NCBI GenBank assembly: GCA_964390845.1
Contig: CAYMIL010000002.1
Location: 33,885-97,884, forward strand
Direction: 5' to 3'
Origin: an uncultured Candidatus Saccharibacteria bacterium
GTDB lineage: Bacteria > Patescibacteriota > Minisyncoccia > Phycocordibacterales > CALRHW01
DNA length: 64,000 nt
Shown here: in pieces, positions 25,988-49,462 of the stretch
Numbering within the stretch: the stretch's first letter is position 1
Layout of the letters: the number at the start of each line of letters is the position of its first letter
Made by a program: the position numbers and the translations under genes
The notes under the pieces: model-generated
The model's input: only the letters and a program-made list of their open reading frames with translations
What the model was told of the DNA's origin: nothing
Database searches by the model: none

Positions 25988-26971
25988 CTAGAGAGAATTG
26001 GGTGTCGGGGGACCGAATATTTCAGGTTTATGGTGTATTGGATAGCCTGGAAGGAATGGGAGGAGGGGGTCATCTATAACGATGGGGGTGCATTTCGGAA
26101 TACCATATTCAATGTTTACGCAAAAACACCATGCATTTTTATTATCTGGGCATTTCTTAAACTCATAGTATCCCCAGCCACCAGGCAAATCCTCCCAACA
26201 ATCATCTCCCAGACAAATTAATTTTCTTTTATAGCAAACAAAGTTATATCCCCCATCAGGAGAAAGTGATATATCACATTTTATATGCGGTAAAATCATA
26301 CCGTCGACAATATCAATCGTGCAATTACCAGACTCATCACAGACAATTGTCGCTCTATAGCAGATTTTTATACCCTCAACGAAGAAACACACCTGAAGCT
26401 TATCTTTACCCAATATCTTTACACAAAGAACGTAGCCATTAACGGTAAACTGTTGCTCCCCGGCAGCGCAGGAGGCACCTTCTTGGGGAGCTTCGTTGGC
26501 AGCCAGGTATAATTCTGCTTCAACGGCGGAAAATGTCTGGGATTGAAGGACTTCGAGGGTGTTTGCATCAACGATGCCAGTTTGCGGGAGGTCGTTCTTC
26601 TGCTGAAACTTTTTTACAGCAATCGCAGTAAGCTGACCAAACACATCCGATTCATTACGGGGAGAACCTGTACCAAACTGAGCAATCGGAAAACCTAGAA
26701 TATTCAACGCTTTCTGTATATCCCGCACACCTTCACTCACCACCCCCAGACCAAGGGGTGAAAAAGATTCTGTCTCCTGGGCTTTTTCTGGTTCTTGGAC
26801 CTTCACAGCTGGTGATTTTGTTCTCAACTGAGCGATGTTTTGCACTGAGGCTACCCAAGAAGAGCTTTGGTACTCACCACCCCTTACGTATGAGACAATA
26901 ACAGATAACAGAGCGAGAGCTACCACCGAACACAAAAGACCAACAACGGCCTTGAGGTTTTTGTTTTTCAT
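25988..26971 (-). CDS. secreted/membrane-anchored protein: N-terminal TM, PG_binding_1-like domain, C-terminal Cys-rich (about 20 Cys) domain
   Basis: MKNKNLKAVVGLLCSVVALALL TM segment; VRDIQKALNILGF...FGQLTAIAVKKFQQKNDLPQTGIVDANT matches the peptidoglycan-binding domain consensus; dense Cys in last about 170 aa. Confidence 0.6.
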   Translation of the reverse strand: MKNKNLKAVVGLLCSVVALALLSVIVSYVRGGEYQSSSWVASVQNIAQLRTKSPAVKVQEPEKAQETESFSPLGLGVVSEGVRDIQKALNILGFPIAQFGTGSPRNESDVFGQLTAIAVKKFQQKNDLPQTGIVDANTLEVLQSQTFSAVEAELYLAANEAPQEGASCAAGEQQFTVNGYVLCVKILGKDKLQVCFFVEGIKICYRATIVCDESGNCTIDIVDGMILPHIKCDISLSPDGGYNFVCYKRKLICLGDDCWEDLPGGWGYYEFKKCPDNKNAWCFCVNIEYGIPKCTPIVIDDPLLPFLPGYPIHHKPEIFGPPTPNSL

Positions 26972-26989
26972 ACACACAGTATACCACGC

Positions 26990-27024
26990 AAAAACCCCCA
27001 GATTTTTCAATCTGGGGGTTTTTG
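26990..27024. terminator. rho-independent terminator after fusA (CCCCCAGA-loop-TCTGGGGG + T5), bidirectional
   Basis: Seen directly; lies only about 18 nt upstream of the start of the Cys-rich gene. Confidence 0.65.
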
Positions 27025-27032
27025 CTGTTTTG

Positions 27033-29177
27033 CTATTTTCGACTCTCGACGATCGTCTTCTCGACGTTCGGAGGAACGATCTCGTAGTGATCAAATTCCA
27101 TACCGGCATTACCACGACCCTCTGTCATAGAGCGGAGCTGTGTGGTATACCCGAACATTTCAGACAATGGAACCATCGCGCGGATAACCTTCACACCACC
27201 TGGTCGGTCCTCAAATCCTTCAATCTGAGCACGCTTTGAAGAGAGGCTTCCTGTCACATCACCAAAGAATTTTTCAGGAGCTGTCACCTCGACTTTCATA
27301 ATAGGCTCGAGAATCACAGGACGTGCACGCTTAGCGGCCTCTTGGAATGCCTGAGAACCCGCAATCTTGTAGGCAATTTCAGATGAGTCCACGTCGTGGT
27401 ACGAACCGAATGTGAGTTCGCAGGATACGTTTACCATCTTGAAGCCAGCAACGATACCGCGATCCATTGCCTCCTTTACACCCTTTTCTACCGCAGGGAT
27501 AAATTCCTGAGGAATAACACCTCCCTTGATAGAATCAATAAACTCGAAGTCGTCGTATCGCTTAACGTTCTTAGGTACTTTTTCACCCTCCTCAAGCTTC
27601 TCCATAGGCTTAAGGGTGATTTTAACGTGACCGTACTGACCCTTACCTCCAGACTGCTTGATGTACTTGTGTTCTGCTTCAGCTTCGCCAGTGATAGTTT
27701 CCTTGTATGACACCTGAGGCTTTCCAACGTTTGCCTCAACACCGAACTCTCGCTTCATTCGATCAACCATGATTTCAAGATGAAGCTCTCCCATGCCTGA
27801 GATGATAGTCTCGCCTGTTTCAGCGTTTGAACCAATTTTAAATGTAGGGTCTTCGTCTGAGAGTTTCTTGAGAGCGATACCCATTTTTTCCTGATCTGCC
27901 TTTGTTTTCGGTTCGATTCGGAGGGATACCACTGGCTCAACGAACTTAATCGGGTCGAGAATGATTGGGTTGTTTTCGTCGCAGAATGTATGCGATGTCT
28001 TTGCGCTCTTGATACCCACAGCGGCAGCAATTTCACCTGCAAACACCTTCTTTACCTCTTCTCGCTTATCTGCCTGAAGGCGGACAATACGGCCAAGGCG
28101 CTCTTTCTCACCAGTCGTTGAGTTGTATAAATAGCTTCCCGCTTCAACTGTTCCAGAATACACACGGAAGAATGTGAGCTGTCCGACGAATGGGTCGTTT
28201 TGGAGCTTGAAGGCAAGCGCCGCAAACGGCTCGCTGTCTGAAGGACCACGCTCGATTTCATTGCCTGTCTTAGGGTCAATTCCCTTTACTGGAGGCATGT
28301 CTAGAGGAGATGGGAGGTATCGAACAACAGCATCGAGCACAAGCTGAACACCTTTGTTTTTGAGCGCAGAACCTGCGTACACAGGAATGAGCTTAACTGC
28401 GAGTGTCGCTTTTCGAAGTGCCGCATGAAGCGCATCCATTTCAGGCTCTTTGCCCTCAAGATACATGCTCATAAGCGCATCGTCTGTCTCGACAATTCTC
28501 TCGATGAGTTCTGCTCGATACTTCTTTGCTTCCTCTACATACTCTGCAGGAACTTCATCTTCACGAATAGTGTTACCCATTGTTCCCTCAAAGTAGAATG
28601 CCTTCATCTTGAGAAGGTCGATAACACCGAGGAAGTTTTCCTCAAGACCAATAGGAATCTGCATACGAACTGCATTTTTGTTGAGGCGGTCAAGAATAGA
28701 TTTGTATGATCGCTCAAAACTTGCGCCCATTCGGTCGAGCTTGTTGATAAAACAGATTCGAGGCACTTTTCCGTCGTCAGCATAGCGCCAGTTTGTTTCA
28801 GACTGAGGCTCCACACCCGCCACACCGTCGAAAACTACCACCGCACCGTCGAGCACTCGAAGGGAGCGCTTCACTTCAGCGGTAAAGTCGATGTGTCCAG
28901 GAGTATCGATAATATTAAAACGATGCTTGAAAGAGGTGTCCGCACCCATGAATGTCGGATTCCAGAAACATGTAATCGCCGCGGCAGTAATGGTAATGCC
29001 ACGCTCTCGTTCCTGCTCCATCCAGTCGGTCGTCGTATTACCCTCGTGCACCTCGCCGATCTTATGACTCTCGCCGGTGTAGTAGAGCACGCGCTCAGAC
29101 GTAGTCGTCTTTCCGGCGTCGATGTGCGCAATAATTCCAAAATTTCTAACTTTTTCTAGAGGGTAATCTCGGTTCAT
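27033..29177 (-). CDS. fusA: elongation factor G
   Basis: [18 protein letters not shown]-motifs; 714 aa. Confidence 0.98.
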
Positions 29178-31206: not shown

Positions 31207-31241
31207 TAACCGCTCGGCAAATGCCGGGCGGTTATTTTTTT
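31207..31241 (+). terminator. rho-independent terminator after rpmB
   Basis: TAACCGCTCGGCA aat GCCGGGCGGTTA + T7. Confidence 0.6.
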
Positions 31242-32089
31242 GCCCATTGTAGACCATCAGACTCAAACACAATTCTCCCCTCTGCATACGTACCAAACAC
31301 TTGGACGCCAAAAGAGCGCAATCTGTCTACAACTATCGGCGACGGGTGGCCATATGAATTCTTTTTACCAGCCGAAATGACTGCATACATGGGCGAGACA
31401 GCCTGTAGAAATTCATCACTTGTTGATGTTTTCGACCCATGATGGCCGACCTTGAGAATGTCGCTGTCGAGCATATCGGCATCAAGACCGACGAGGTGTT
31501 TTTCTGTTTTCTCCGGAGCATCACCCGTAAGCATCATCGTCGTGCTGCCATACACAAGCTTTGCGACAATCGAGCCGTCGTTTGTAGACAAAGCCGATGG
31601 ATCAGTATCTGGAAAAAGCACAAGAAGATGCACACCCTCATCAAGAACAATATCCATGCCCCTACGCGCGAGAACTCGACGAGAACCCTCTGCAACAACG
31701 AGCCTTTCTAACTGTGCATACGTCGCACTATCTGAAACAGTGCCCGGCTCTAGAACGAGCGACACGTCGTATCGCCGTAGCACATCGATAAACCCTCCAA
31801 TATGATCCTTGTCCGGATTAGTTACCATAAGCACATCAATAGTATGGTCAAAAAACGACATCTGCGAACGCAGTTGTGCCAATACCTTAGCAGAAGAACC
31901 ACCATCGATAAGAATCTGGCGTCCATGTGGCGTTTCTATAAAAATAGCGTCCCCCTGCCCCACATCAAGTACGGCGACACTGAGTACACCTCTGCCATCA
32001 AGACGCACGAGAGCGCACACTGAGACGATGTATACACACAGACATAGCGCGGTCGCAGAAAGTAGTGGAAATGTAAGCAGGTATTTCAT
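31232..32089 (-). CDS. ComEC/Rec2-associated MBL-fold metallo-hydrolase (ComEC C-terminal domain as a separate ORF)
   Basis: VLDVGQGDAIFIETPHGRQILIDGG and HHGS motifs typical of the ComEC beta-lactamase-like domain; N-terminal signal/TM. Confidence 0.7.
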   Translation of the reverse strand: MKYLLTFPLLSATALCLCVYIVSVCALVRLDGRGVLSVAVLDVGQGDAIFIETPHGRQILIDGGSSAKVLAQLRSQMSFFDHTIDVLMVTNPDKDHIGGFIDVLRRYDVSLVLEPGTVSDSATYAQLERLVVAEGSRRVLARRGMDIVLDEGVHLLVLFPDTDPSALSTNDGSIVAKLVYGSTTMMLTGDAPEKTEKHLVGLDADMLDSDILKVGHHGSKTSTSDEFLQAVSPMYAVISAGKKNSYGHPSPIVVDRLRSFGVQVFGTYAEGRIVFESDGLQWAKK

Positions 32090-32111
32090 AAGTTTGATAT
32101 AGTATGCGCAT

Positions 32112-32711
32112 ATGAAACCATACACCGAACACACATTTTCGATTCCTGAACTTGCAGGAATTTCGAAAAAAAATATTGAAGAGCATCTTAAGCTCTACGC
32201 GGGCTACGTAAAAAGCGTAAACACCATTTTTAGCAAGATTGAAGAACTACGTACCGATAGTGAAAAAAACGCGTACGTACTAGGCGAGCTTCAACGACGA
32301 CTCGGATTTGAATTTGATGGTATGCGCAATCATGAATACTATTTCAAAAGCCTCGAAGGTGGAGCTACCGCTCTCGCTGAAGGATCACTCAAGCAGGCAC
32401 TTGAAGCACAATTTGGTAGTGTTGACGCGTGGATGAACACGTTTTCAGCACTCGCCCTCACTCGAGGTGTCGGTTGGGCGATACTGTACTGGGATCATCA
32501 GACGGAGCAATTTGTGCACACATGGGTAGAAGAACAGCATCTCGGCCACCTCGTCGGCCTTCAGCCGGTGCTCGCGCTCGATATGTGGGAACACGCATAC
32601 GTCTACGACTACCCAACATCTGAAAAGAAAAAATATATCGCGGCATTTTTTGCAAATCTTAACTGGTCCGTTGTTGAACAAAACTTCGCCGACGCACAAA
32701 CTCGATCATAA
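32112..32711 (+). CDS. sod: Fe/Mn-family superoxide dismutase
   Basis: C-terminal DMWEHAYVYDY signature (DxWEHAYY) and 199 aa length. Confidence 0.8.
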   Translation: MKPYTEHTFSIPELAGISKKNIEEHLKLYAGYVKSVNTIFSKIEELRTDSEKNAYVLGELQRRLGFEFDGMRNHEYYFKSLEGGATALAEGSLKQALEAQFGSVDAWMNTFSALALTRGVGWAILYWDHQTEQFVHTWVEEQHLGHLVGLQPVLALDMWEHAYVYDYPTSEKKKYIAAFFANLNWSVVEQNFADAQTRS

Positions 32712-34167
32712 ACACAACATAAAACACAACAACAAGCCACGCGGAGATGCGTGGCACTGTTGTATATGCATACGGCACTGACGCACCAAACTCAACAACG
32801 ACAAGCGCATACCGCAACAACATATATGCGCCCAAGCCGATCATTGTAGAGCATATCGGCAAAAGAAAACCAACAACACCCGCGAGAAAACTAAGACCCA
32901 TCGCGGAAGGTATGAGTGGCGGCACAAGAACATTTGTGACCAAAGAGATAAACGACACCATACCTGTCATATATACAAGCATCGGGAACAAAAAACACTG
33001 CGTCGCAAGTGTCGTTGCAACGCATGCGCGCAGACCAAACTTCTCTGGAATAATACTAAGGCGCGATTCAAAAAAAGGAACACATGCAACAAGAGCAAAT
33101 GTTGCCATGCACGATAATTGAAATGATGGGTCGGAGATGAGGATGAGTGGGTTGTGCAAGACCATCACCGTAGCGGCAATGGCAAGCGCGCGGAGTAAAT
33201 CATATTCCCTGCCATATGCCCGAGCAACAAGAGCGATGCACGCCATAATGGACGCGCGCACGACAGTAGCGCCACTGCCCGTTACAATTGCGAAGACGAT
33301 AATACCGAACACCCCACCGAGAACGCCCGAAGGTTTCGGGAGAAATGAAAACATTTTTATAATACACTCCGCGACAATAGTAACGTTGTAACCAGAAAGT
33401 ACGACGATATGCACCAAGCCCACCTGACGAAACTTTTCTTGCAAATCCTTACCCAGCGACTGTTTTGTCCCAAGGAGAATTCCTCCCGCAAGCGCGGACT
33501 CTGGAGATGGAATGGCGTATTCTATACGGGCAATAAATGCTTGCTTTGCATACAGCAGTGCACGACGCAGAAATGATCCGTGTCCGCGAGATAATAGAGA
33601 AAATGTGGGATTGTCTACATAATACCCAACATTATCTTTTTCTAGATACGCGCGATAATCGAACACTCGCCCCGTGTCAGTTTCAAAATTTTCTGGCAAC
33701 TGCAGAAGACCCGAGAGGCGGACTTCATCGCCGTACAAAAACTCTGTATCGGTATACGGCGCCACCACAAGTATATCGTGGCGGTACCCCTCAAGTGTGG
33801 TGTTGTTGTAAAGATGTGGCGTTACCATGAGACGCACATGTGTCTCGCGCCTATCTGGCTCTTCTGAAACAACACCAACAATATCGACCACCTCCCCCAC
33901 GGCATGCACCAAAGCATCGTGTGCCCGATATGAAAGTGTGTATGCATGGCGCGCTACGCCAACACACACACTACACAAGCACACACCCATAAGAAAGACG
34001 CGCGGATGTGCTCGATACACATACGTACACACCGCACAACAACACGCGAGGAACATCGCCGCATATCCAGATACGATGTGAAACAGCACAGTGTTGAGCG
34101 CAACACCACATAAAAAACCAGCAACACTTGTATACAACACCCTTGAAGGCATACGCCCAGTATGCAC
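32659..34167 (-). CDS. comEC: ComEC/Rec2 DNA internalization channel (membrane competence domain)
   Basis: Polytopic membrane protein, LVHIVVLSGYNVTIVAECI competence-domain motif; lacks the MBL domain, which sits in a separate downstream ORF. Confidence 0.75.
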   Translation of the reverse strand: MHTGRMPSRVLYTSVAGFLCGVALNTVLFHIVSGYAAMFLACCCAVCTYVYRAHPRVFLMGVCLCSVCVGVARHAYTLSYRAHDALVHAVGEVVDIVGVVSEEPDRRETHVRLMVTPHLYNNTTLEGYRHDILVVAPYTDTEFLYGDEVRLSGLLQLPENFETDTGRVFDYRAYLEKDNVGYYVDNPTFSLLSRGHGSFLRRALLYAKQAFIARIEYAIPSPESALAGGILLGTKQSLGKDLQEKFRQVGLVHIVVLSGYNVTIVAECIIKMFSFLPKPSGVLGGVFGIIVFAIVTGSGATVVRASIMACIALVARAYGREYDLLRALAIAATVMVLHNPLILISDPSFQLSCMATFALVACVPFFESRLSIIPEKFGLRACVATTLATQCFLFPMLVYMTGMVSFISLVTNVLVPPLIPSAMGLSFLAGVVGFLLPICSTMIGLGAYMLLRYALVVVEFGASVPYAYTTVPRISAWLVVVFYVVFMIEFVRRRSFVQQRTS

Positions 34168-34224: not shown

Positions 34225-34701
34225 ATGAAAAAGAATTCATCGGGGTTATCTATCGTGGAAATTATCGTGAGTGTCGCCATCCTCTCTCTATTTGCAACAA
34301 TTAGTTTGTATTCTTTTTTTGCACTAAGCCGTCGTAGTGCGCTCGACACAAGTGCAACCATCGTAAAATCTGTACTCACTGAAGCGCGTTCAAAAACACT
34401 CGCGGGAGAAAGTGGCACTCGATACGGTGTGTATTTTTCCTCCTCATCAGTCACCACCTTCTCTGGAACGTCATACACAGCAAACGCATCGGGAAATGTT
34501 GTTAGCCCCCTTCAATCAGGTGTCACCATTTCAAATGTCTCACTCGCTGGAGGTGGCGCATGCTCAAGCTCATCATGCAACATCATCTTCAACCGTCTCA
34601 CTGGCGAGACATCACTTGCAGGGACAAGCACCGTAACACTTCGCGGGCAAGATGGCGCAACAACGAGCGTTACAATTTTCGGCACAGGTATTGTAGAATA
34701 A
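34225..34701 (+). CDS. type IV pilin-like / pseudopilin (prepilin N-terminal motif G|LSIVE)
   Basis: MKKNSSG-LSIVEIIVSVAIL: class III signal peptide with Gly at -1 and Glu at +5. Confidence 0.75.
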   Translation: MKKNSSGLSIVEIIVSVAILSLFATISLYSFFALSRRSALDTSATIVKSVLTEARSKTLAGESGTRYGVYFSSSSVTTFSGTSYTANASGNVVSPLQSGVTISNVSLAGGGACSSSSCNIIFNRLTGETSLAGTSTVTLRGQDGATTSVTIFGTGIVE

Positions 34702-34706
34702 CTATC

Positions 34707-35189
34707 ATGAACGCACGCAAAGGTATGGTTCTTGCAGAAGCACTTGTTGGCGCATCCGTGCTGATTGTGTTTATCTCCGCACTCGTGCTTGCGCAACGCA
34801 TCTTTATCGCGCAGTCATCGATGTCTATCGACAAAACACAGTCTGCACTCCTTGCAGAAGAAGGTATCGAGGTTGCAAAGTTTTTGCGTGATGAAAACTG
34901 GGCAAATATCGCCTGCGCAAGCACAACCTGTGGTCCCTACGGCCTCCAGTGGGATACGACGTGGTCAACAACCACATCCGCCGAAATTATCGACGAAAAA
35001 TTTTATCGCACCCTCACTATCGACCGCGTCTGTCGTAACAACAGCACATTTGCCATAGCATCATCATGTTCTGGTGCTGTTACCAACGATCCAAACACCA
35101 AAAAGGTAACCATTTCCGTATCGTGGTCGCGCAACAACGCGACAACAACAAAAACGATGGCGACATATCTCACCAACTTCCATGAATAA
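34707..35189 (+). CDS. type IV pilin-like / pseudopilin (G|MVLAE)
   Basis: MNARKG-MVLAEALVGASVLIV; start trimmed from longer ORF. Confidence 0.7.
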   Translation: MNARKGMVLAEALVGASVLIVFISALVLAQRIFIAQSSMSIDKTQSALLAEEGIEVAKFLRDENWANIACASTTCGPYGLQWDTTWSTTTSAEIIDEKFYRTLTIDRVCRNNSTFAIASSCSGAVTNDPNTKKVTISVSWSRNNATTTKTMATYLTNFHE

Positions 35190-35694
35190 GCACAGAGGAT
35201 TTAGCTTGGCAGAAATGATTGTGTACGTCGCGCTCGTAGCGATGCTCCTCTTTATCGTTATCAACATTCTCATTGTGGGGCTCAACATGTATCGACGCTT
35301 TGATGCGGCGCGCAATGTGCAGGATGCGGCAATTGCTGTAATCGAGCGGGTCGTATCCGAATCTCGCAACGCATCAATGATCAGTGTCGAGGCATCTGGC
35401 GTCGACAGCAGTGGCCAAAACGCTCTCGTTATGTACAACGAAAACGATGCTCGGTTGGCACAATTCACCATTGGCACCGATGGTATCATTCGGCTCTACA
35501 ACAGTAGCGGAAACCTCGTTGGCCCCCTTACTCCAAAGGATGTAACCGCTGCGGGGTCGTATTTCCTCATTGCATCAAGCACTTCTGGTACGCCACTGGC
35601 GCGCGTGATCCTCATTCTTCGTTCAGGCGAAGGAGAGACAGAGCGCACAGAAAATTTTTACACATCTGTCGTGCCTCGCGGTTCATATAAATAA
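35182..35694 (+). CDS. type IV pilin-like / pseudopilin (G|FSLAE)
   Basis: MNKHRG-FSLAEMIVYVALV; 8-nt overlap with upstream pilin (translational coupling). Confidence 0.75.
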   Translation: MNKHRGFSLAEMIVYVALVAMLLFIVINILIVGLNMYRRFDAARNVQDAAIAVIERVVSESRNASMISVEASGVDSSGQNALVMYNENDARLAQFTIGTDGIIRLYNSSGNLVGPLTPKDVTAAGSYFLIASSTSGTPLARVILILRSGEGETERTENFYTSVVPRGSYK

Positions 35695-35699
35695 ACACC

Positions 35700-37718
35700 A
35701 TGCGTTCCCTTTTTAAACACATACACAACACACGCGGAGGATACGTTGTACTCACAGCGGCCCTTTGTTTTATCGCAGTATCACTCACTATTATTTTTGG
35801 TATTGTGTCGCCGGCAATCGCACAGGTAAAAAATTCTTCTCGTTCGTTTGTGTCGCGCGAAAGCTATTTTCTCGCTGAGGCAGGAGTCGAAGATGCAGTG
35901 TACCAGTTCAAAAACGGATACACCCCAACATCAGGACAGCTCAGTATCAATGGCGAAACTGTAGCTGTCACCATAGCAACAGGTAACGGCTCGACCACCA
36001 TCACCGCGACAGGTGATAAAAACAACACCGAGCGAAAGGTAGAAGCTGAGCTCGTTGGCGACACCGGTGCTATTTTCAACAATGCCGTATTCTCTGGTAA
36101 TGGTGGTTTTAGCATCACCGGCGGATCACAGATTATCGGTAGCGTATATTCCAACGGCGACATCATCGGTGGTGGTGGTTCTTCGATTTCACAAAATGCT
36201 GTCTCTGCAACGCTTGTAAGCCCATCAGTCAACCAATCAAACGGCACCGTCTTCCCTCCTGCGTACGGCATTAGCTTTGGAAGCAACGTTGCCCCACAAG
36301 ATGTCGCGCAAAGTTTCCAAGTTTCCACATCAACAGCGATAACCGCGATCCGTCTGTATATCAAAAAGAGCACAAGCGGATGGATGAACGACATCACCTT
36401 GCGCATCATGAGCAACAACTCGGGCACAGGAAACCCAGGCACAACAAGTATCGCATCCGTTAATATTCCCGCATCGCAGATTTCTACATCATACGGTTAC
36501 CTCGCAGTAACCCTTCCAACAGCGCCCACACTCACACCAGGTACAACATACTGGATCGTCCTTGATACAGGCTCAACCTACGGAGCGTCATACACCATTG
36601 GCGCGGCGAGTGCGTCATACGCAAATGGCCTCGCGAAAGTTGGAACATACAATAGTAGCTGGTCCAACACATCTCCATCTGGACTCGATGCATATTTCGA
36701 CATTGTTGTCGGTGGCGACCCGGGCGTCATTTCTGGCTTAAGTATTGGCGGTGATGCGTGGGCGTACAATGTTGCAAACTCGTCTATTTCAGGAACAGCG
36801 TATTGCCAGATTGGCTCCGGCAACAACAAGTCCTGCAACACGACGCGGACAGACCCAAGCCCTGTCGGCTTCCCCATCTCCGACACAAATGTCACAACAT
36901 GGAAAGCAGGTGTTACCTCAGCAATTTCTCCGGCAATTACTGGCGGATGGACATACACAGGCAATCTCACTATCGGATACCAGGGCACCACAACTTCAAC
37001 ACTCAAGAAAGTAAACGGAAATCTTACGCTCTCTTGCTCAAGCGCTCCCGCAACATTTGGAGATTTGTGGGTTACCGGAAACGTGACGATTGGTAGTGGT
37101 TGTATCTTTAACGCAAATCAGGTAAAAATCGATGGCTCATTCAACGCGGGTTCTGGCCAAGGCAACATCGGCGCGCTTGAGGTGGTGGGAAATATTAGCA
37201 TCACAAGCGGAAACACATTGACCGCTGGGCCGATTAAAGTCGGTGGCGATCTCACTGTCGGCTCCACAGCGCTTGTCCTCAAGGGCACCCTGTGGACCGT
37301 CGGTAAAATTACTGTACAAAGCGGAGCGGCTGTGAGACTCCACTCATCCTACGGTACTCAACCAGGTGTCATCGTTGTCGACGGACGTGTCGACCTCGGA
37401 GGCGGCGGATCATTCTCTGGTTCTGGACAAACAGGAAGCTACCCTGTGCTTGTATCCCTCAGTACGTGTCCGACAGGTACCGGCTGTAGTAGCAACAACG
37501 CTATCCAAATGAGTGGAGGCGCGGGAGCAATTCTCCTTATTGCACAAAACGGAACAGTGAGCATGACCGGTGGAACAGCGGCGAAGGCGCTTATCGGAAA
37601 ACAAGTGGTTCTTTCAAACGGTGCTCGAGTAACATACGACAACAACCTCATCAATCTTGATTTCCAAAGCGGTCCTGCAGATGGCTATGACATCGGACTC
37701 TGGAAAGAAGTTGAGTAG
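35700..37718 (+). CDS. large pilus-associated protein (672 aa): N-terminal TM/pilin-like anchor lacking Glu+5, beta-helix-like Gly/Thr-rich repeats
   Basis: Follows three pilins; repeats such as GNVTIGSGCIFNANQVKIDGSFNAGSGQGNIGALEVVGNISITSGN suggest a parallel beta-helix. Confidence 0.5.
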   Translation: MRSLFKHIHNTRGGYVVLTAALCFIAVSLTIIFGIVSPAIAQVKNSSRSFVSRESYFLAEAGVEDAVYQFKNGYTPTSGQLSINGETVAVTIATGNGSTTITATGDKNNTERKVEAELVGDTGAIFNNAVFSGNGGFSITGGSQIIGSVYSNGDIIGGGGSSISQNAVSATLVSPSVNQSNGTVFPPAYGISFGSNVAPQDVAQSFQVSTSTAITAIRLYIKKSTSGWMNDITLRIMSNNSGTGNPGTTSIASVNIPASQISTSYGYLAVTLPTAPTLTPGTTYWIVLDTGSTYGASYTIGAASASYANGLAKVGTYNSSWSNTSPSGLDAYFDIVVGGDPGVISGLSIGGDAWAYNVANSSISGTAYCQIGSGNNKSCNTTRTDPSPVGFPISDTNVTTWKAGVTSAISPAITGGWTYTGNLTIGYQGTTTSTLKKVNGNLTLSCSSAPATFGDLWVTGNVTIGSGCIFNANQVKIDGSFNAGSGQGNIGALEVVGNISITSGNTLTAGPIKVGGDLTVGSTALVLKGTLWTVGKITVQSGAAVRLHSSYGTQPGVIVVDGRVDLGGGGSFSGSGQTGSYPVLVSLSTCPTGTGCSSNNAIQMSGGAGAILLIAQNGTVSMTGGTAAKALIGKQVVLSNGARVTYDNNLINLDFQSGPADGYDIGLWKEVE

Positions 37719-37728
37719 TCTCGAGAAA

Positions 37729-38451
37729 TTATGAAAATGAGGCGATAATCTCCTGCTCCTCTGAAGCGGACAATGCCTTTTTAAAACGTGCGCCGGCAAC
37801 GCCTTTGACGCGGCGCTCGCATTCGGCCCACGTCGCGTGAGTCTCTATCACTCCCCCAACCGCGCTCACATACGAATACGCCTGCGCGCGTGAGCGAGCG
37901 CCGCGCCCACTTTTTTCCCTTTGTCGTTTCTCCACGCGCCCTGTATCTGCAACTGTCTCAGAAAGATCAACTGTGTACTGCGCTCGCGCACCAGAAAAAA
38001 GCTCCACGGCTTTCCCCTCGGCATACGATGAGGCAATTTCATCAACACGCTCATTGCCTGGGATACCGACGTGACCGCCAACATGTTTCCATTCAATCCG
38101 TGCCGAGCGCTCTTCAATAAGCGCACTCAGTGTTTCCCACAAATCCCGATTCACCACGTCCTTTTTTTGTATAGTCTTCCAATTTCTTCGACGCCAATTT
38201 TCAAGCCACGATGTAATACCCGAGATAACATACGAGGAATCCGTGTGCACAACAACACATCCAGGGATAGTGCGCAGTTCTTCAAATGCACGGATTACTG
38301 CCGTAAGCTCCATGCGGTTGTTTGTAGTGTGGTCTTCCCGACCACCACGCTCTACTACCTGCGCTCCATACGCAACAATAGCGCCCCAGCCACCTGGCCC
38401 TGGGTTTCCCTTAGACGCACCATCGCTCCATACAACAATATGACCAGTCAT
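37729..38451 (-). CDS. rnhA: ribonuclease HI with C-terminal hybrid-binding (Cauli_VI-like) domain
   Basis: SDGASKGNPGPGGWG, TNNRMEL, HTDSSY, HVGIPGNERVD RNase H motifs; C-terminal YSYVSAVGGVIETHATWAECERRVKGVAGARFKKALSASEEQEII matches the HBD consensus. Confidence 0.85.
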   Translation of the reverse strand: MTGHIVVWSDGASKGNPGPGGWGAIVAYGAQVVERGGREDHTTNNRMELTAVIRAFEELRTIPGCVVVHTDSSYVISGITSWLENWRRRNWKTIQKKDVVNRDLWETLSALIEERSARIEWKHVGGHVGIPGNERVDEIASSYAEGKAVELFSGARAQYTVDLSETVADTGRVEKRQREKSGRGARSRAQAYSYVSAVGGVIETHATWAECERRVKGVAGARFKKALSASEEQEIIASFS

Positions 38452-38454
38452 CCG

Positions 38455-40185
38455 CTATACAATAATATCTACAATCCTCAAACGCAATTCTGGAAAATTT
38501 CTAAACATAGATTTCTCAAGTGTGCCAACAAGATTGATACTCATGCCCGCACGCACCGCAGACTTTTGTTCTGAAGAAGCAAAAAAGGCTATTGCTGAAA
38601 CTGGTTTGCCCGACGCCGTAGCAAGTTTGAGCTCAAGATGATTTTTTTCTTTACCAAACATCTTACTTTCTCCGACAACTACACGCTCAAACAAGAAAAG
38701 TGGTTTAGGGTTGCCAACACCAAACGGCGCGAGGCGCTCAACGAGTTTGTATGTATCCCAATTTACGTCATTGATTGAAAGCCGTCTGTCGATGAGGACT
38801 TTTTCTGGCTCGCGAGATGCATGATGAGCGGTGATACGCTCGTACGCCGAAACAATCGCATCTTCAAGCGTATGGATATGCTCATGAGAAACAGCGAAGC
38901 CTCCAGACATCGCATGACCACCAAATGTAACAAATGAGTCTTTTGTCGCCTCCATAAGCTCCACAACGCTTACTGTGCCGTCAGAACGACACGACCCTCG
39001 TATGAGCTCGCCACCTTCTCGCCCCCACAAAAATACCGTGCATCCATAATCATTTTTGAGTGTGTTGGCCGCAAGACCAAGCAATGCGGGCTTCCAGTCT
39101 GGATTACCGATTACCAACACCCTCTTAAAAGTTCCATTATCAATACGCTCGGCAATTGTCTTTTTTATCTCCTTTACCATCGACGCAACAATTCCCTTTC
39201 GTTCATTGTTGATGCCATCCAAATGCGTTGAGAGTTCGTCAGCCTCAAGCTCATCGCGCGTTGAAAGAAGTCTAAATGCATCGCGCGGAATACCCATACG
39301 TGACGCCGCGTTTATGCGCGGTGAAATCATAAAGCCAATATCATCTTCGTTGACATGACGTTGGTTTGTTTTTGCGGCACGTAACAATTTCATAAGCCCG
39401 ATACGTGGAGAGATGCGCAATACTTTAAGTCCATAATATGCAAAGACGCGATTCTCACCAACAAGTGGCACCATATCAGAAAGAGTTGCAATACCGACCA
39501 TATCAAGGAGCCACTTTTCCCATCCGTTAGGAATATTTTTTACGATATCTCGCTGACGCGCGGTATACATAAGCGCCTGCACAAATTTGAAAATGACACC
39601 TGCACCACAGAGTATTTTTTCTGGATACTGACACGTTGCTTGTTTTGGATTTACAATCGCATACGCGGGCGGAAGCTCCGAACCTGGCTCATGATGATCG
39701 GTGATGATAACGTCCATACCGAGCTCAACAGCTCTGCGTACCGGTGCAACATCTGCGATACCGCAATCTATCGTGATAACAAGCGCGGTACCTCGCTTGG
39801 CAAACTCTTCAATTGCCGGAATATTAAGGCCGAAACCCTCATCATGGCGATGTGGAATATAATTTTCGAAATGTTCAAAACCAATTTTCTTAAAAAAATC
39901 ATGCAACACCACAGCACCCGGAATACCATCTGCATCATAATCACTAAAAATTACCACCCGCTCCTTGCTTTCAATTGCCTTAAGTACGCGTTCGACAGCC
40001 CGCTCCATATCTTTCATTCGATACGGGTGATGGTTGTCTCGATCGTAATTTGGATTGAGAAATTGCTCGGCGTCTTCGGCGCGAGTGATACCGCGGGCCG
40101 TGAGAAGATCACGTAAGAGCTCCGGATACCCATTCAAACTATCTCCCGATGTCTGAACAGAGTAATCTCGAAGCGCGTAGTTCAT
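38455..40185 (-). CDS. recJ: single-stranded-DNA-specific exonuclease RecJ
   Basis: DHH motifs (FSDYDADG, ITDHH) and DHHA1 domain. Confidence 0.85.
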   Translation of the reverse strand: MNYALRDYSVQTSGDSLNGYPELLRDLLTARGITRAEDAEQFLNPNYDRDNHHPYRMKDMERAVERVLKAIESKERVVIFSDYDADGIPGAVVLHDFFKKIGFEHFENYIPHRHDEGFGLNIPAIEEFAKRGTALVITIDCGIADVAPVRRAVELGMDVIITDHHEPGSELPPAYAIVNPKQATCQYPEKILCGAGVIFKFVQALMYTARQRDIVKNIPNGWEKWLLDMVGIATLSDMVPLVGENRVFAYYGLKVLRISPRIGLMKLLRAAKTNQRHVNEDDIGFMISPRINAASRMGIPRDAFRLLSTRDELEADELSTHLDGINNERKGIVASMVKEIKKTIAERIDNGTFKRVLVIGNPDWKPALLGLAANTLKNDYGCTVFLWGREGGELIRGSCRSDGTVSVVELMEATKDSFVTFGGHAMSGGFAVSHEHIHTLEDAIVSAYERITAHHASREPEKVLIDRRLSINDVNWDTYKLVERLAPFGVGNPKPLFLFERVVVGESKMFGKEKNHLELKLATASGKPVSAIAFFASSEQKSAVRAGMSINLVGTLEKSMFRNFPELRLRIVDIIV

Positions 40186-42567: not shown

Positions 42568-43788
42568 CTAGATAGCGTCAACAAGAGAATACATCGGTCC
42601 AAGCATAGAGATTGCAAAGAATCCGACCGCGATACCAATAAACACCATAAGAAACGGCTCAATGATTGTCGACATATCTTTTGTCTTTTGGTCGACCTCA
42701 TCCTCGTAAAACTGAGCAACGTTTGTAAACATTTCAGACAATTTTCCAGTTTCTTCGCCAATACTCGTCATTTCACCCACAAACACGGGGTACAGTTTCT
42801 CGTGCGCAAGGAAGATGCCCGACATCGGCTCTCCTTTCTCGACACTACTTTCTGCCTCTGCAAGCACTGTTTTGTAATAAGAGTTTTGAATCACATCTTT
42901 TGTAATACGAATGGCTACCAGCACATCAACACCTGAGGACAGGAGGGAGGAGAGGGTGCGCGCTGTTCGAGCGGCGTTTACGTTTTTTACAATTGGTGAA
43001 ACAAGTGGAATATGAAGGACGATTGTATCAAGTGTGCGCTTACCTGAAGCAGTACGCGCAAAGAGATATACACCACACGCAAGCGCAATGAGCGAGCCGA
43101 GGGAAATTAAAATATTGTTTTTCAAAAAATCAGAGAGGAAGATTACGATGCGCGTCGACAGCGGAAGTGTAAGCTTAAGCTCGCGAAACGTTGCGGTGAG
43201 TGTCGGCACAAGATACACAAGCATAAGAACACCGATAACAAGCATAATGGAAAGTACGATACCAGGATAAATGAGCGCGCCGCGCACCTTTTTCGTCAGC
43301 AAATATGCCTTCTCAAGCTGGTCAGCAACTGTTTTAAGGGCGATAGTAAGCGTACCACTCTGCTCTCCAGACTTTACCATCGAGACGAAAAGTGTCGAAA
43401 ATGCCGACGGATGCTTTACCATTGCCTCACTAAGCTCACTTCCCTTGCTAATATCTGCCGAGAGGTTTGCGATGACACTCTTAAGTTTCTTATTCTTTGC
43501 TTGACGTTCCATCACAGAAAGAGCACGAGCCATCGGCAAACCCGCGGTAATCATCGTGCCAAGATTGCGCGCAAACAAAATACGGTCAATTGTTTTGACA
43601 CTTCCACCCTGAAGGCTCGCGAAAGCACTCGCAAGAAACCCTGAACGCTGTTTTTTTTCTTCTGCAAAGGTAACCGTTCCACCCTCCCCCTTTATCTGAC
43701 TATACAGCGCAGATTTATTTGCGGCCTCTTGCTCACCTTCATATCGCTCACCCGACGCATTAATAGCTTTAAATGTAAAAATTGGCAT
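42568..43788 (-). CDS. pilC: type IV pilus assembly platform protein PilC / GspF family
   Basis: Two GspF repeats, three TM helices; directly downstream of pilB. Confidence 0.85.
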   Translation of the reverse strand: MPIFTFKAINASGERYEGEQEAANKSALYSQIKGEGGTVTFAEEKKQRSGFLASAFASLQGGSVKTIDRILFARNLGTMITAGLPMARALSVMERQAKNKKLKSVIANLSADISKGSELSEAMVKHPSAFSTLFVSMVKSGEQSGTLTIALKTVADQLEKAYLLTKKVRGALIYPGIVLSIMLVIGVLMLVYLVPTLTATFRELKLTLPLSTRIVIFLSDFLKNNILISLGSLIALACGVYLFARTASGKRTLDTIVLHIPLVSPIVKNVNAARTARTLSSLLSSGVDVLVAIRITKDVIQNSYYKTVLAEAESSVEKGEPMSGIFLAHEKLYPVFVGEMTSIGEETGKLSEMFTNVAQFYEDEVDQKTKDMSTIIEPFLMVFIGIAVGFFAISMLGPMYSLVDAI

Positions 43789-43791: not shown

Positions 43792-45576
43792 TTATTCTGA
43801 AATTACACGGAGAATTTCTTCGATTGTTGTGTGGCCTTGTACCGCCTTAAAGATGCCATCTTCAATCATTGTGAGCATTCCTTCTGTTTTTGCCTGCTTC
43901 TCAATGTCTTTATCTGTTTTCCCCTGCATCACAAGCTCTTTAATAGCAGGAGAAATTTTTAATATTTCATAAATGCCGACGCGACCACTAAACGCTTCTT
44001 CCTCAGAAGCACCCGCCTTTGGCCGATAAAACGGCACTTTGTCCCATGACACCTTACCCTCAACCACCTGCTCTTCTTTGAGGAACTTGAGTACACGATC
44101 GAGATCGACCGTTTTTTTGAGAGTTTCAATTTCAGCATCTGATAAAAAGTATTTTTCTTTTTTATCTGTGAGCTTTCGAACAAGACGTTGGGCAATGACG
44201 ATGTTGACTGTCGACACAATAAGAAACGGCTCAACCTTCATGTCGATAAGACGTGGGATAGCGCCCGCAGCGGAGTTGGTGTGCAATGTGGAAAGCACGA
44301 GGTGGCCCGTGAGCGACGCGTTGATCGCAAGCGACGCTGTTTCACCGTCTCGAATTTCTCCCACCATAATAATATCCGGATCCTGACGCACCAAGGTGCG
44401 CAACCCCGCAGAAAACGTGAGGCCAATTTCTGGCTTCACCTGTGTTTGGTTAATCCGATTCATCTGATACTCTACAGGATCTTCGATAGTGGAAATATTT
44501 ACATCCGGCGTGTTGAGAATATCGAGCAAGGTGTAGAGGGTTGTTGTTTTTCCAGAACCAGTCGGACCAGTGGTGAGAATCATACCCGTCGTGAGTTTCA
44601 TTGTGTGGTGAATACGCTCAAGCGCTTCTCCATGGAAGCCAAGCGCTTCCAGCGTAAAGCCTGAGGCTGTCTCACGCAACAAACGCATCACTGTCTTCTC
44701 TCCGTAATAGACAGGGAGTGTCGACACACGAAATGACACCTTTTCATTGTTAACCTCAATTTTGAAACGACCATCTTGAGGAAGGCGCTTCTCATCAAGC
44801 TTCAAATTTGCGAGCACTTTAATACGTGCCGTGATACTCGGCGCAATATTTCTCGGCAATGTCATCGCGTCGTGAAGTAGGCCGTCGATTCGGTAACGGA
44901 CAATCACCTGCTGTTCAAGTGGTTCAATATGAATATCGGAAGCATTTTGCAAAATAGCATGCTTGAGCAGTGTGTCGACAATACGCACAACAGGCACGTC
45001 CTCTGCGAGTTTCTTGAGGTCACTTTCAGACACATCCTCTCCCCCCTCATGTTCTTCTACTGTCTTGAGTGAGACCGCATCTTTTTGAATCAAATCGCCA
45101 AATTCTGCCTTGAGACTTTTCTGATACTGCAACAACGCCCCCTTCATCGACTCATTATCTGTAAGGCGGGGCAAAATTTTCAAACCTACTTTCTTTTTTA
45201 CGAAATCAATCGCCGTAAGATCGGCAATATCGAGCATCGCCACCTCAAGCGCGCCAGCAATTTTTTTAAAGGCAACAATGTTGTGGTTGCGAGCAATCGG
45301 CTCTGGCACAAGCGAGAGTACTTCAAAGTCGAGCTTCTGCCCTTTCAAGTCGACAAACGGTATGCCGAGCACGTGCGCGTGAATCCGGCGCAAATCGTCC
45401 TCACTAATCTTTCCTCGACTCACGAGAATTTCTCCAACGCTTACGTCGGTTGCCTTCGATTCTTTTTCTGCATCAGCAAAATCGGCTTTTGAGACAAGGC
45501 CTGCGTCAAGAATAAAATCCTTAAATTGTTTTTCTTCAACGTGCATCTGAACGTAGTGTTGACTTAAGTATAACAA
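43792..45576 (-). CDS. pilB: type IV pilus assembly ATPase PilB / GspE (with N-terminal GSPII_E_N domains)
   Basis: Walker A GPTGSGKTTT, Asp box, Walker B, His box; ORF starts TTG at 45576, an ATG (MHVEEK) lies at 45546. Confidence 0.9.
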   Translation of the reverse strand: MLYLSQHYVQMHVEEKQFKDFILDAGLVSKADFADAEKESKATDVSVGEILVSRGKISEDDLRRIHAHVLGIPFVDLKGQKLDFEVLSLVPEPIARNHNIVAFKKIAGALEVAMLDIADLTAIDFVKKKVGLKILPRLTDNESMKGALLQYQKSLKAEFGDLIQKDAVSLKTVEEHEGGEDVSESDLKKLAEDVPVVRIVDTLLKHAILQNASDIHIEPLEQQVIVRYRIDGLLHDAMTLPRNIAPSITARIKVLANLKLDEKRLPQDGRFKIEVNNEKVSFRVSTLPVYYGEKTVMRLLRETASGFTLEALGFHGEALERIHHTMKLTTGMILTTGPTGSGKTTTLYTLLDILNTPDVNISTIEDPVEYQMNRINQTQVKPEIGLTFSAGLRTLVRQDPDIIMVGEIRDGETASLAINASLTGHLVLSTLHTNSAAGAIPRLIDMKVEPFLIVSTVNIVIAQRLVRKLTDKKEKYFLSDAEIETLKKTVDLDRVLKFLKEEQVVEGKVSWDKVPFYRPKAGASEEEAFSGRVGIYEILKISPAIKELVMQGKTDKDIEKQAKTEGMLTMIEDGIFKAVQGHTTIEEILRVISE

Positions 45577-45630: not shown

Positions 45631-46635
45631 TTACTCGATTCGAAGCGCCCAACCAAATCGTGTCTCTCCACAATCATAGTCATTACCAGAGCTCAAACAA
45701 CTTGTTGGTGGCACACCTCCGATACTACCGATTGTTGTGCCGCCAGCGTACACGCCCATGTATACATATGGAGTAGCTGTATACATTTCACGGTCTGCTG
45801 TACTGTCTCCTATCTGATCCATTCGTGTAAGGTTCACAAGCCACTTTGCGCTTGCGCCGCCAGGGAGCGTTGGGCCAGCACCGCTGTTGAGCACATCACC
45901 TGCCCATGATGTAGACCATTTTGATCCATCCACACCGATATTATGTCCCGGCTCGTTTCCATACGCCTCCAAGTATCCGAAGGCAAAAGAGATTGTAGCC
46001 CCAACGCCCGTTGTTTGGTTGGTGCCCGTTCCATATGGAAGCATGACTGATCTCCAATCACCCTGACCGCCCGTACCTGTTGCAGTAAAGACCTTTCCGT
46101 TTGAAGGCGTGCCACCTGTTACCTGAAGTGTTCCCGCAACTTTCACGTTGGTTGAAGACTGGGACATGATGGAGTTTGAAAGTGTCGTGCCGTTTGGAGA
46201 AAAGAACGGAATGTAGTTTGTTGTACCAGAGCCACCAATACCACCTGTACCCCCACCTGATGGCCATGTGTCTTTACATACTCCTCGAATACACAATCCT
46301 CCAGCAGTTGCAGAACCTCCGTTGATGTATCCTTCAGTATTAATTTTATAGTTTGGATCATGTGCTACAGTTCCCGCGATAATTGAGCCTGCGGATGCGC
46401 GAAGCGCAACTTCAGGAGCACCTGTACCTATCACGAGTCCACCAATTTTTGTCTGAGAAGCACTGCTCACATTAATCGGCGCATCACATCCGGGGCTACC
46501 TGATGTACATGCCGGTGGCAATGATGACGGCGCAGACCAGTCTGCGCGAAGTGCGCCGATGCCAACGGTGAGCATAAGCGCGAGTACAATCACTTTCACG
46601 CTCTGCAGAATTTCTTGTTTATTTATGATTTTCAT
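45631..46635 (-). CDS. secreted Gly/Thr-rich protein (334 aa), signal peptide
   Basis: N-terminal hydrophobic signal; low-complexity GGTGG tracts; upstream of pilB on same strand. Confidence 0.45.
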   Translation of the reverse strand: MKIINKQEILQSVKVIVLALMLTVGIGALRADWSAPSSLPPACTSGSPGCDAPINVSSASQTKIGGLVIGTGAPEVALRASAGSIIAGTVAHDPNYKINTEGYINGGSATAGGLCIRGVCKDTWPSGGGTGGIGGSGTTNYIPFFSPNGTTLSNSIMSQSSTNVKVAGTLQVTGGTPSNGKVFTATGTGGQGDWRSVMLPYGTGTNQTTGVGATISFAFGYLEAYGNEPGHNIGVDGSKWSTSWAGDVLNSGAGPTLPGGASAKWLVNLTRMDQIGDSTADREMYTATPYVYMGVYAGGTTIGSIGGVPPTSCLSSGNDYDCGETRFGWALRIE

Positions 46636-46675
46636 ACGTTGTTAATTAATCTATTACTATAAGTATACACCACTA

Positions 46676-46993: not shown

Positions 46994-47004
46994 ATGTGTT
47001 GAGA

Positions 47005-49269: not shown

Positions 49270-49462
49270 GACAAAAATGGTTAAGTACTCGTTTGAAATT
49301 ATATCACACGACACCTGCTCAGAAGCGCGCTATGCACAGTTTTTGACAGATAAGCCCGACTTGACTTTTCTCTTTCAATTTACTATTATATGTGCATTGA
49401 AGTTCGCCCCCGGCGAGCTCATTTTTTTAGATAACGCCGGTTTCCCGGCAACATACACACAT

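Follow-up and report, generated by a model that had tools for sequence, protein, structure and literature searches.

What kind of filament is built from three small prepilins and a 672-aa pilin-like protein whose genes stand head-to-head with comEC? The sequence-only reading of this DNA had answered with a compact competence-pilus locus, in which the tip or minor pilin is an unusually large beta-helical protein. Patescibacteria (CPR) have few conserved surface machines, type IV pili among them; these pili are thought to serve host attachment and possibly DNA scavenging, and what is known of their tip ligands comes from a few cultured Saccharibacteria. From the window, i.e., the whole 64-kb stretch of DNA analysed, and from 80 related Patescibacteria loci, we consider that the four genes encode, with a probability of about 0.75, the core minor-pilin cassette (a priming and tip complex) for a type IV pilus that lacks a secretin, in a patescibacterium of the Paceibacteria/Parcubacteria type, capped by the 672-aa protein, hereafter ORF4 (gene big).

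The three small ORFs are type IV prepilins with a class III signal peptide. On the forward strand lie pil1 (34225..34701; 158 aa; leader MKKNSSG/LSIVE, the slash marking cleavage after G7), pil2 (34707..35189; 160 aa; MNARKG/MVLAE, G6), pil3 (35182..35694; 170 aa; MNKHRG/FSLAE, G6) and ORF4 (35700..37718). The true start of pil2 is the ATG at 34707, within a longer mechanical ORF (34560-35189), which leaves 5 nt after pil1; pil2 and pil3 overlap by 8 nt (35182-35189), and another 5 nt separate pil3 from ORF4. When every six-frame ORF of 50 aa or more in the window was scanned by regex, the class III pattern followed by a strongly hydrophobic stretch (15–18 of 21 residues) turned up in pil1, pil2 and pil3 only; four further, weaker matches (12–13 of 21) are apparently spurious. 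Pfam N_methyl (PF07963) scored 21.9 bits for pil1 and 25.0 bits for pil3 against a gathering score of 21.2, and it gave no match to the window copy of pil2 while matching 29 of 45 pil2 orthologues at E<=0.05. The G/xxxxE motif is kept in about 60 orthologues of each protein. The scan, the N_methyl scores and this conservation together indicate that the motif is more than chance, and the lollipop fold of type IV prepilins, a long N-terminal helix on an antiparallel sheet, was also found. The consecutive Gly-1/Glu+5 signal peptides and the gene overlap described in the sequence-only reading are therefore both borne out.

The three prepilins can be placed in minor-pilin classes to different degrees. 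Pfam matches in orthologues make pil1 a candidate GspH/FimU-class subunit: GspH matches 13 of 46 orthologues (best E 8e-7), the orthologue in L082 combines N_methyl with a weak GspH match, and the window copy itself matches N_methyl only. The structural model of pil2 matches GspI/EpsI/XcpV and Thermus PilA2, the fold of the GspI/PilV class. N_methyl matches 39 of 46 orthologues of pil3, and its globular part has no family match; its GspJ/PilW class is suggested by gene position only.

ORF4 begins as a pilin and continues as something else. Its N-terminus reads MRSLFKHIHNTRGG/YVVLT, with Thr at +5; across the family, all 37 of the 37 homologues aligned have Gly-1, and their residue at +5 is I, L, T, V or M, never Glu (0 of 37), as expected from the earlier comparison with GspK/PilX-type pilins. 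Pfam N_methyl does not match ORF4, and hhalign aligns its N-terminus with that of pil2 at 87% probability with the two Gly-1 residues superposed. In the AlphaFold2 model (pLDDT 85), a pilin lollipop (helix 12-71 and 4-stranded sheet 79-119) leads into a first beta-solenoid (residues ~126-194), a CBM-like sandwich (~195-330) and a second beta-solenoid (~416-655), which backs the beta-helical body predicted from the letters. After the second solenoid and a low-confidence linker comes a conserved C-terminal strand (residues 664-671), in which W668, E670 and V671 are invariant in a 12-sequence alignment. Structurally, ORF4 is best matched by tapirins, phage baseplate proteins, Thermus ComZ and ice-binding proteins, and its middle domain by phage baseplate/central-fibre proteins and CBM16/22/11. 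No sequence homology to ComZ or GspK was found, as a 43-member profile searched against all PDB sequences at E<=10 returned a phage phi812 protein only. ORF4 is the largest of the four proteins, lacks Glu+5 and joins a pilin domain to large non-pilin modules, all features of the K class, and the model supports a pilin-like subunit in the GspK/PilX position with a large beta-helical body.

The cassette is not self-contained. In the 80 loci, the usual order on a single strand is pilB-pilC-pil1-pil2-pil3-big (median gaps 16, 2.5, 3.5, 0 and 6 nt), followed at some distance, where the flank reaches, by recJ-rnhA-comEC-(sod)-MBL, the last encoding a metallo-beta-lactamase protein. Where at least 5 kb of upstream DNA was available, pilB was present in 55 of 62 loci and pilC in 58 of 62. 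The pil1 gene lies immediately 3' of pilC in 56 loci (median gap 2.5 nt), and pil3 sits between pil2 and big in 63. Prepilin genes stand directly upstream of the big homologue in all upstream-reaching fetched loci except L063, whose big homologue has no canonical N-terminus; the occurrence of homologues in non-pilus contexts only, which would have spoken against a pilus role, is thus not what we observed. Divergent lineages keep pilB-pilC, two prepilins and big; pil1 is not detectable there, and the two prepilins that are left show a weak resemblance to pil2 and pil3. In the window, pilC (42568..43788, minus strand; platform protein with two Pfam T2SSF domains, E 2e-54) and pilB (43792..45576, minus strand; assembly ATPase of 594 aa with Pfam T2SSE, E 1e-124, and MshEN) are found 5 kb from the cassette. 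The real start of pilB is likely ~30 nt 3' of the ORF start, and the orthologue in L001, the closest relative, has 584 aa. The window cassette is, judged by synteny, the distal two-thirds of this six-gene unit, relocated and inverted; pilC would ancestrally have stood directly upstream of pil1, with the cassette as the 3' part of a pilB-pilC-pil1-pil2-pil3-big operon. The type IV pilus gene set proposed from the letters alone stands, with its overlooked pilB/pilC context added. Peptidase_A24 (PilD), PilM/N/O and a second T2SSE (PilT) were indeed not found among the scanned window ORFs. The window contains no major pilin, and around the cassette no promoter or terminator signal exceeded shuffle expectation.

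From the gene order, motifs, folds and synteny of the cassette, we infer its processing, assembly order, tip location and ligand as follows. The small prepilins would enter the membrane, and a prepilin peptidase whose gene lies elsewhere would cleave them behind Gly-1; PilD is reported to be widespread in CPR (PMC6744442). On the PilC platform they would join ORF4 in a GspH-I-J-K-like complex, beneath which the PilB ATPase would polymerise a major pilin, also encoded elsewhere. ORF4 would cap the filament, and its combination of an invariant cleavage-site Gly with the lack of Glu+5 is what is expected of a subunit having nothing above it. The ~550-residue beta-solenoid with its CBM-like beta-sandwich would then be displayed as a ligand-binding head.

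The closest precedent is the competence pilin locus pilA1-pilA2-pilA3-comZ of Thermus thermophilus, whose ComZ (structure 6QVI) binds dsDNA and is required for transformation (PMC6561018). Both loci place three small prepilins before a far larger pilin-like protein without canonical pilin features, and in both the large protein, which takes the place of GspK, is proposed to form the tip or cap. A ComZ-like tip pilin would also be expected to bind a PilA2-like partner. Like ComZ, ORF4 carries a pilin-like domain with a large triangular beta-solenoid resembling ice-binding proteins, so a large beta-helical tip pilin is not as unusual as first supposed (PMC6561018). ORF4, however, has no detectable sequence homology to ComZ and contains an extra central CBM-like sandwich; its host lacks an outer membrane and PilQ; and pilA4 comes after comZ, whereas no major pilin gene follows ORF4. 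In the ComZ topology the solenoid is an insertion between the last two strands of the pilin sheet, and the conserved C-terminal strand of ORF4 is at most a candidate for such a final strand. The resemblance could be convergent, as beta-solenoids are common.

Two other systems are alike in part. The core minor (pseudo)pilins GspH-I-J-K of the T2SS and FimU-PilV-PilW-PilX of type IVa pili are likewise encoded by four consecutive genes, which in the cassette begin with a candidate GspH-like and a GspI-like one, and the last subunit is the largest and lacks Glu+5; the role of the set would be assembly priming and tip formation. GspK, unlike ORF4, has an alpha-helical insert instead of a beta-solenoid and sandwich; the J class of pil3 is suggested by position only, and some lineages have two prepilins and big. 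In cultured Saccharibacteria, PilX2 is a large minor pilin without a canonical PilD signal peptide that is needed for efficient host binding, and PilX1 is similar (PMC11623550). These TM7x proteins also belong to patescibacterial type IV pili and carry lectin-like accessory domains, for which a tip adhesin role is proposed (PMC11623550). Their accessory folds differ from those of ORF4, and their loci include pilT, pilM/N/O and pilD, whereas pilB-pilC alone accompany the cassette here.

The fold likeness of ORF4 points weakly to its ligand. A polysaccharide or the cell surface of a host or substrate stands somewhat short of an even chance and is judged slightly more likely than DNA, which is a possible but doubtful ligand. 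The glycan or surface reading draws on the phage-fibre and CBM matches of the middle domain, on the acidity of the ORF4 family (median pI 4.77) and on the part of PilX2 in host binding. ComZ itself binds DNA without obvious basic patches.

The strongest alternative, which we regard as tentative, is a sharpened form of the sequence-only reading: a dedicated DNA-uptake pilus with ORF4 as a ComZ-type DNA receptor at the tip. DNA would pass by retraction or disassembly to a split ComEC channel and nuclease, and RecJ and RNase H would process it for recombination or nucleotide salvage. Genes for these putative steps are close by, all on the minus strand. The comEC gene (32659..34167) encodes the DNA channel part only (Pfam Competence E 2e-45, DUF4131 E 8e-17), and the separate MBL protein (31232..32134) is homologous to the ComEC C-terminal nuclease domain: in a phmmer search of the PDB it matches 9ic4 'Competence protein' (E 1e-38) and ComEC residues 533-792 (E 5e-38). 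Some two dozen of the fetched loci show the order comEC-sod(opposite strand)-MBL again (MBL 29, SOD 27). On the other side of the cassette lie rnhA (37729-38451; Pfam RNase_H E 5e-40) and recJ (38455-40185; assigned by synteny and by orthologues carrying DHH/DHHA1/RecJ_OB), which in most relatives are conserved neighbours between the cassette and comEC. The group recJ-rnhA-comEC-MBL moves together. Of the 39 loci with full flanks, 28 have comEC no more than 10 kb from the cassette, and three arrangements keep the two close: comEC is found downstream in most loci, stands head-to-head with the cassette in the window and in L001, and sits immediately 5' of pilB in L081. CPR bacteria, moreover, lack nucleotide synthesis and show an enrichment of type IV pilus and ComEC genes (PMC6744442), and the ComZ parallel in architecture and layout has already been described.

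Several observations weigh against this DNA-uptake pilus. The head-to-head arrangement is real, with 57–58 bp between the comEC ORF start and pil1 (72 bp with the gene-caller ATG of a 497-aa ComEC), but it is confined to the window and L001; in other relatives comEC lies 4–9.5 kb downstream on the same strand, with tpiA, pgk, a HIT gene, recJ and rnhA in between. The closeness that seemed special in the window is thus a local rearrangement of a broader, looser synteny and weak evidence for co-regulation. Since the wider region (NusA ... S12/S7) is syntenic too and housekeeping genes intervene, the pilus/comEC linkage may be plain synteny, and 11 of the 39 full-flank loci have no comEC nearby. 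The best fold matches of ORF4 are to polysaccharide adhesins, CBMs and phage receptor-binding modules, the family is acidic as noted above, and ComEA, DprA and PilT are absent from the window. In TM7x, mutants of T4P-2, one of its two pilus systems, are as competent as the wild type, a result that covers this system only, the other being essential. A bolder version, rather unlikely in our view, casts the ComZ-like tip pilin as extracellular DNA receptor in a DNA-scavenging pathway that would extend across the Parcubacteria, with the pilus operon, recJ, rnhA, comEC and the separate nuclease domain as one functional unit. If true, the unit would supply nucleotides to organisms unable to make their own by capturing, importing and degrading foreign DNA, and the CBM-like insert would also let the tip dock on host cell walls.

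In comG operons, the ATPase gene is followed by the platform gene and then the pilin genes. The six-gene unit shows the same order and could parallel comGA-comGB-comGC-comGD...GG as a self-contained Com-like pseudopilus, in which pil1 could be the major subunit of a short filament and not a GspH-like adaptor. We consider this improbable. The lack of pilM/N/O and pilT near the operon agrees with it, as does the GAST content of pil1, the highest at 50.6%, and there are weak NCBIfam and Pfam ComGE matches. However, the NCBIfam ComGC/ComGE scores of 13.8–16.6 bits fall far below the cutoffs of 75 and 49 and cover the N-terminal helix only. PilB, at 594 aa with an MshEN N-domain, resembles type IVa/MSH ATPases and not the short ComGA. 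Orthologues of pil1 match GspH, a minor-pilin family, and the divergent lineages without detectable pil1 nevertheless keep the rest of the unit.

The minor-pilin cassette must also be weighed against the view that ORF4 is no pilus subunit at all, but a membrane-anchored, tapirin-like surface adhesin merely co-transcribed with the pilins. Caldicellulosiruptor tapirins (4WA0, 6N2B) are structural matches of ORF4 at 12–14% sequence identity, and the absence of Glu+5 and of an N_methyl match would suit such a protein. Tapirins are not pilins and have neither the pilin helix nor the lollipop domain. ORF4 has both in its model, its helix is homologous to that of pil2, Gly is invariant at the cleavage-site-equivalent position, and its gene keeps strictly to the GspK/ComZ position, right behind the prepilin genes (median gap 6 nt), which makes the adhesin reading less probable still. 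A type II secretion pseudopilus (GspH-I-J-K) for protein export is very unlikely, since the H/I-class likeness of pil1 and pil2 to T2SS pseudopilins is set against Patescibacteria lacking an outer membrane and secretin (PMC6744442) and a window without GspD, GspC, GspL and GspM.

The ORF4 family is very large: 1025 clusters reach E<=1e-30 in a library of 1.8 billion proteins, and no description of it was found in the literature searched. NCBI labels its members 'choice-of-anchor R' after NCBIfam NF041539, which matches ORF4 residues 195-325 (36 bits against a cutoff of 30) and is silent on the pilin N-terminus, the solenoid and the pilus context. This family can now be assigned the capping position in a conserved pilB-pilC-minor-pilin operon and gains a concrete structural model, a ComZ-like solenoid with a CBM-like domain. 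Binding assays (DNA versus glycans) thereby gain a defined target, as does the inference of host range from metagenomes. ORF4 has a GAST content of 46% and two conserved Cys pairs, C369/C379 and C590/C596, features typical of exposed extracellular proteins.

The four-gene cassette of the window is best read, with a probability of about 0.75, as a GspH/I/J/K-type priming and tip complex of a PilB/PilC-driven, secretin-less type IV pilus, which ORF4 would cap with a displayed binding head. Three small prepilin genes, pil1 (34225–34701, 158 aa, leader MKKNSSG/LSIVE), pil2 (34707–35189, 160 aa, leader MNARKG/MVLAE) and pil3 (35182–35694, 170 aa, leader MNKHRG/FSLAE), precede the gene of the 672-aa protein ORF4 ("big", 35700–37718). 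All four lie head to tail on the plus strand, with a 5-nt gap between pil1 and pil2, an 8-nt overlap of pil2 and pil3, and a 5-nt gap before ORF4. The pilin leader of pil2 depends on the ATG at 34707, as the mechanically called ORF begins earlier, at 34560. The sequence-only reading had described these prepilin ORFs and the 672-aa ORF, and its description is confirmed, because, in a regex scan of all six-frame window ORFs, only pil1, pil2 and pil3 combined a class III signal peptide with a strongly hydrophobic tail, and pil1 and pil3 pass the gathering score of Pfam N_methyl. Pfam gave no match for ORF4 or for the window pil2, and a promoter and terminator scan around the cassette performed no better than shuffles.

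The pilin classes are recognizable to different degrees. Pfam GspH is matched by 13 of 46 pil1 orthologues (best E = 8e-7), the window copy matching N_methyl only, while the recognizable part of pil3 is its N-terminal motif and its gene position suggests a GspJ-like role. When profiles of pil1, pil2 and pil3 were run against PDB sequences, they aligned with generic pilins over the N-terminal helix only; therefore, their globular domains are not classified in that way.

ORF4 combines a pilin domain with large accessory folds. The predicted model (43 sequences, pLDDT 85.2) starts with a pilin domain made of a 60-residue N-terminal helix (12–71) and a four-stranded antiparallel sheet (79–119), followed by beta-solenoid turns, a beta-sandwich at about 195–330 (36 bits to NCBIfam choice-of-anchor R, cutoff 30), a long beta-solenoid at about 416–655, and a conserved terminal strand (664–671). 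Its N-terminus aligns with that of pil2 with the cleavage-site Gly superposed (profile-profile probability 87%, E = 3.9e-6). This Gly is kept in 37 of 37 family members, and position +5 is occupied by I, L, T, V or M and never by Glu. In Foldseek, the sandwich matched baseplate and central-fibre proteins of phages as well as CBM16/22/11. Repeat searches found no DNA-level tandem repeats underlying the beta-helix. The bactofilin or "polymer-forming cytoskeletal" label used in some source annotations was rejected because of the pilin helix, the conserved disulfide-type Cys pairs, the extracellular-type composition and the strict pilus context. The family is also modular: many representatives of ~410–450 aa apparently have no choice-of-anchor R sandwich in the middle, as their matches are limited to the N-terminal part and profile positions of about 335–589, and members of 730–1000 aa carry extra inserts.

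Systems of this kind, in which a core minor-pilin cassette includes a large modular tip pilin, are already known. In Thermus, the pilA1-pilA2-pilA3-comZ locus encodes three minor pilins and then ComZ, which is devoid of canonical pilin sequence features, carries an ice-binding-protein-like beta-solenoid of roughly 380 residues inserted into a GspK-like pilin domain, binds PilA2 and dsDNA, and has been proposed to cap the competence pilus (PMC6561018). The window cassette shares this layout and has a capping subunit of the same kind, and ComZ, a close structural analogue, is the best Foldseek match to full-length ORF4 (E = 8e-3), although the ORF4 family has no match to it at the sequence level. 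In contrast to the Thermus system, ORF4 has an extra CBM-like domain, and its lineage has neither outer membrane nor secretin (PMC6744442). The large minor pilins of cultured Saccharibacteria, which have no canonical PilD signal peptide, carry accessory folds other than those of ORF4, a jelly roll in PilX1 and a propeller in PilX2, and PilX2 is required for host binding (PMC11623550). Type IV pili and ComEC enrichment in CPR bacteria (Patescibacteria) are likewise published. What appears to be new is the placing of the very large Patescibacteria ORF4 family in a tip-pilin role; a literature search on choice-of-anchor R and solenoid pilins in Patescibacteria found no paper on it.

The pilus context of ORF4 is widespread. 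A word-indexed search of 5.8 billion proteins returned more than 470 homologues, Patescibacteria wherever the source names the organism and some labeled "choice-of-anchor R domain-containing protein" by NCBI; an exhaustive profile search gave 1025 clusters (50% identity) at E ≤ 1e-30 and 2631 at E ≤ 1e-10. Using a 12-sequence alignment, we fetched 80 loci from Paceibacterota/Parcubacteria, Nomura-, Kaiser-, Moranii-, Zambryski-, Azam- and Woykebacteria and one Saccharimonadales bin, and searched their ORFs with the window proteins. The dominant order is pilB-pilC-pil1-pil2-pil3-big on a single strand, with median gaps of 16, 2.5, 3.5, 0 and 6 nt, and recJ-rnhA-comEC-(sod, opposite strand)-MBL follows further downstream where the flank is long enough. 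Where upstream DNA extends for 5 kb or more, 55/62 loci carry pilB and 58/62 carry pilC. The homologues are not confined to non-pilus contexts, as prepilin genes lie directly upstream of big in all but one of the loci with upstream DNA. Most loci whose small pilins were missed by phmmer still have one to three class III prepilins there, and those short of prepilins are largely truncated by a contig end. One subset has only two prepilins, weakly resembling pil2 and pil3. Kaiser-/Moraniibacteria-type loci (L036, L054–L060, L064–L066, L072 and L075) typically encode only two prepilins, of about 130 and 190 aa, between pilC and big, about 1 kb upstream of big; a GspH-like pil1 was undetectable in them, and in a few the motif scan caught just one of the two prepilins.

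The window itself encodes the motor and platform overlooked by the sequence-only reading: PilB (43792–45576, minus; T2SSE, E = 1e-124, and MshEN) and PilC (42568–43788, minus; T2SSF) lie 5 kb downstream of the cassette. Scanned window ORFs included no Peptidase_A24, PilM/N/O or second T2SSE ATPase, and the other sizeable ones are ribosomal, translation, glycolytic, cell-envelope or RNA-processing genes. Three ORFs on the pilB strand, directly upstream of that gene (45631–49314), could encode further pilus-associated surface proteins. The first product, of 769 aa, is rich in Cys and combines a PKD domain with repeats of a G[WHY]AWS..IGW[IV]KF-like motif; another, of 105 aa, is a TM-anchored repeat protein; and the third, of 334 aa, is rich in Gly and hydrophobic at its N-terminus. 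The 769-aa and 334-aa products have homologues upstream of pilB in 8–11 other loci.

In the capping mechanism, PilD would process the prepilins, pil1–3 and ORF4 would assemble on the PilC platform before the filament beneath them, and ORF4 would present its binding head at the tip. This reading builds on observed features: the sequence motifs, an operon structure seen across lineages, the modeled folds of pil2 and ORF4, and a Gly−1 retained in the absence of Glu+5. A polysaccharide or cell-surface ligand is slightly favored, because ORF4 matches the folds of tapirins, CBMs and phage receptor-binding proteins, its family is acidic (median pI of 4.77), and host binding has a precedent in the cultured Saccharibacterium TM7x. 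The leading alternative is DNA: ORF4 and ComZ have a shared architecture, comEC lies within 10 kb in 28/39 loci with full flanks, and it occurs near pilus genes in three different arrangements. However, this synteny argument is weakened because housekeeping genes intervene between the pilus operon and recJ-comEC and the entire region is syntenic. It is unlikely that the genes form a self-contained Com-like pseudopilus in which pil1 is the major subunit. Somewhat less probable still is a non-pilus, anchored adhesin resembling tapirins, cellulose adhesins whose genes also adjoin type IV pilus loci. A T2SS pseudopilus is very improbable and was rejected, since CPR bacteria have no secretin or outer membrane.

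The interpretation as a competence-pilus locus divergent from comEC holds only in part. The comEC gene (32659–34167, minus; Pfam Competence and DUF4131) does start 57 bp upstream of pil1 on the opposite strand, but this head-to-head pairing is limited to the window and its closest relative L001 (69% identity), the only fetched locus that shares the relocated arrangement. The Pfam-annotated locus L082 shows the full ancestral neighborhood: NusA, followed by pilB-pilC-pil1-pil2-pil3-big-tpiA-pgk-HIT-recJ-rnhA-comEC-sod-MBL-L28-M50-S12-S7. The window has the same gene content, but here the cassette has moved out of the pilC-tpiA interval and lies, inverted, between comEC and rnhA. Repeat searches at the junctions detected neither flanking inverted repeats nor scars of mobile elements. 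Other loci are also rearranged: the cassette is oriented opposite to pilC-pilB in L011 and L057, neither of which has comEC within 10 kb; L081 carries recJ-rnhA-comEC immediately upstream of pilB; and a 3.2-kb insertion separates pil1 from pil2 in L080 (5648–8898). The pil2-pil3-big block is contiguous in all four, with pil1 attached except in L080.

ComEC is split over two genes, because the separate metallo-beta-lactamase gene MBL (31232–32134, minus; 300 aa) encodes a clear homologue of the C-terminal nuclease domain of ComEC (E = 1e-38 and 5e-38 against ComEC structures). The 502-aa comEC product contains the DUF4131 and Competence domains only. Between these two genes, a Fe/Mn superoxide dismutase gene (sod, 32112–32711, plus) overlaps both on the opposite strand. 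About two dozen related loci show this comEC-sod-MBL order too (MBL in 29, SOD in 27).

Elsewhere in the window, a 375-aa ORF with a peptidoglycan-binding domain (PG_binding_1; 25988–27115, minus) between tuf and fusA seems to have been inserted recently into the str operon region, as L001 has only a 237-nt gap there. Two ORFs (52214–53368 and 51206–51880, both plus) encode secreted-looking low-complexity proteins that resemble each other in a coiled-coil-like C-terminal region; one of the two has dockerin-type repeats and tracts rich in Ser, Thr and Asn.
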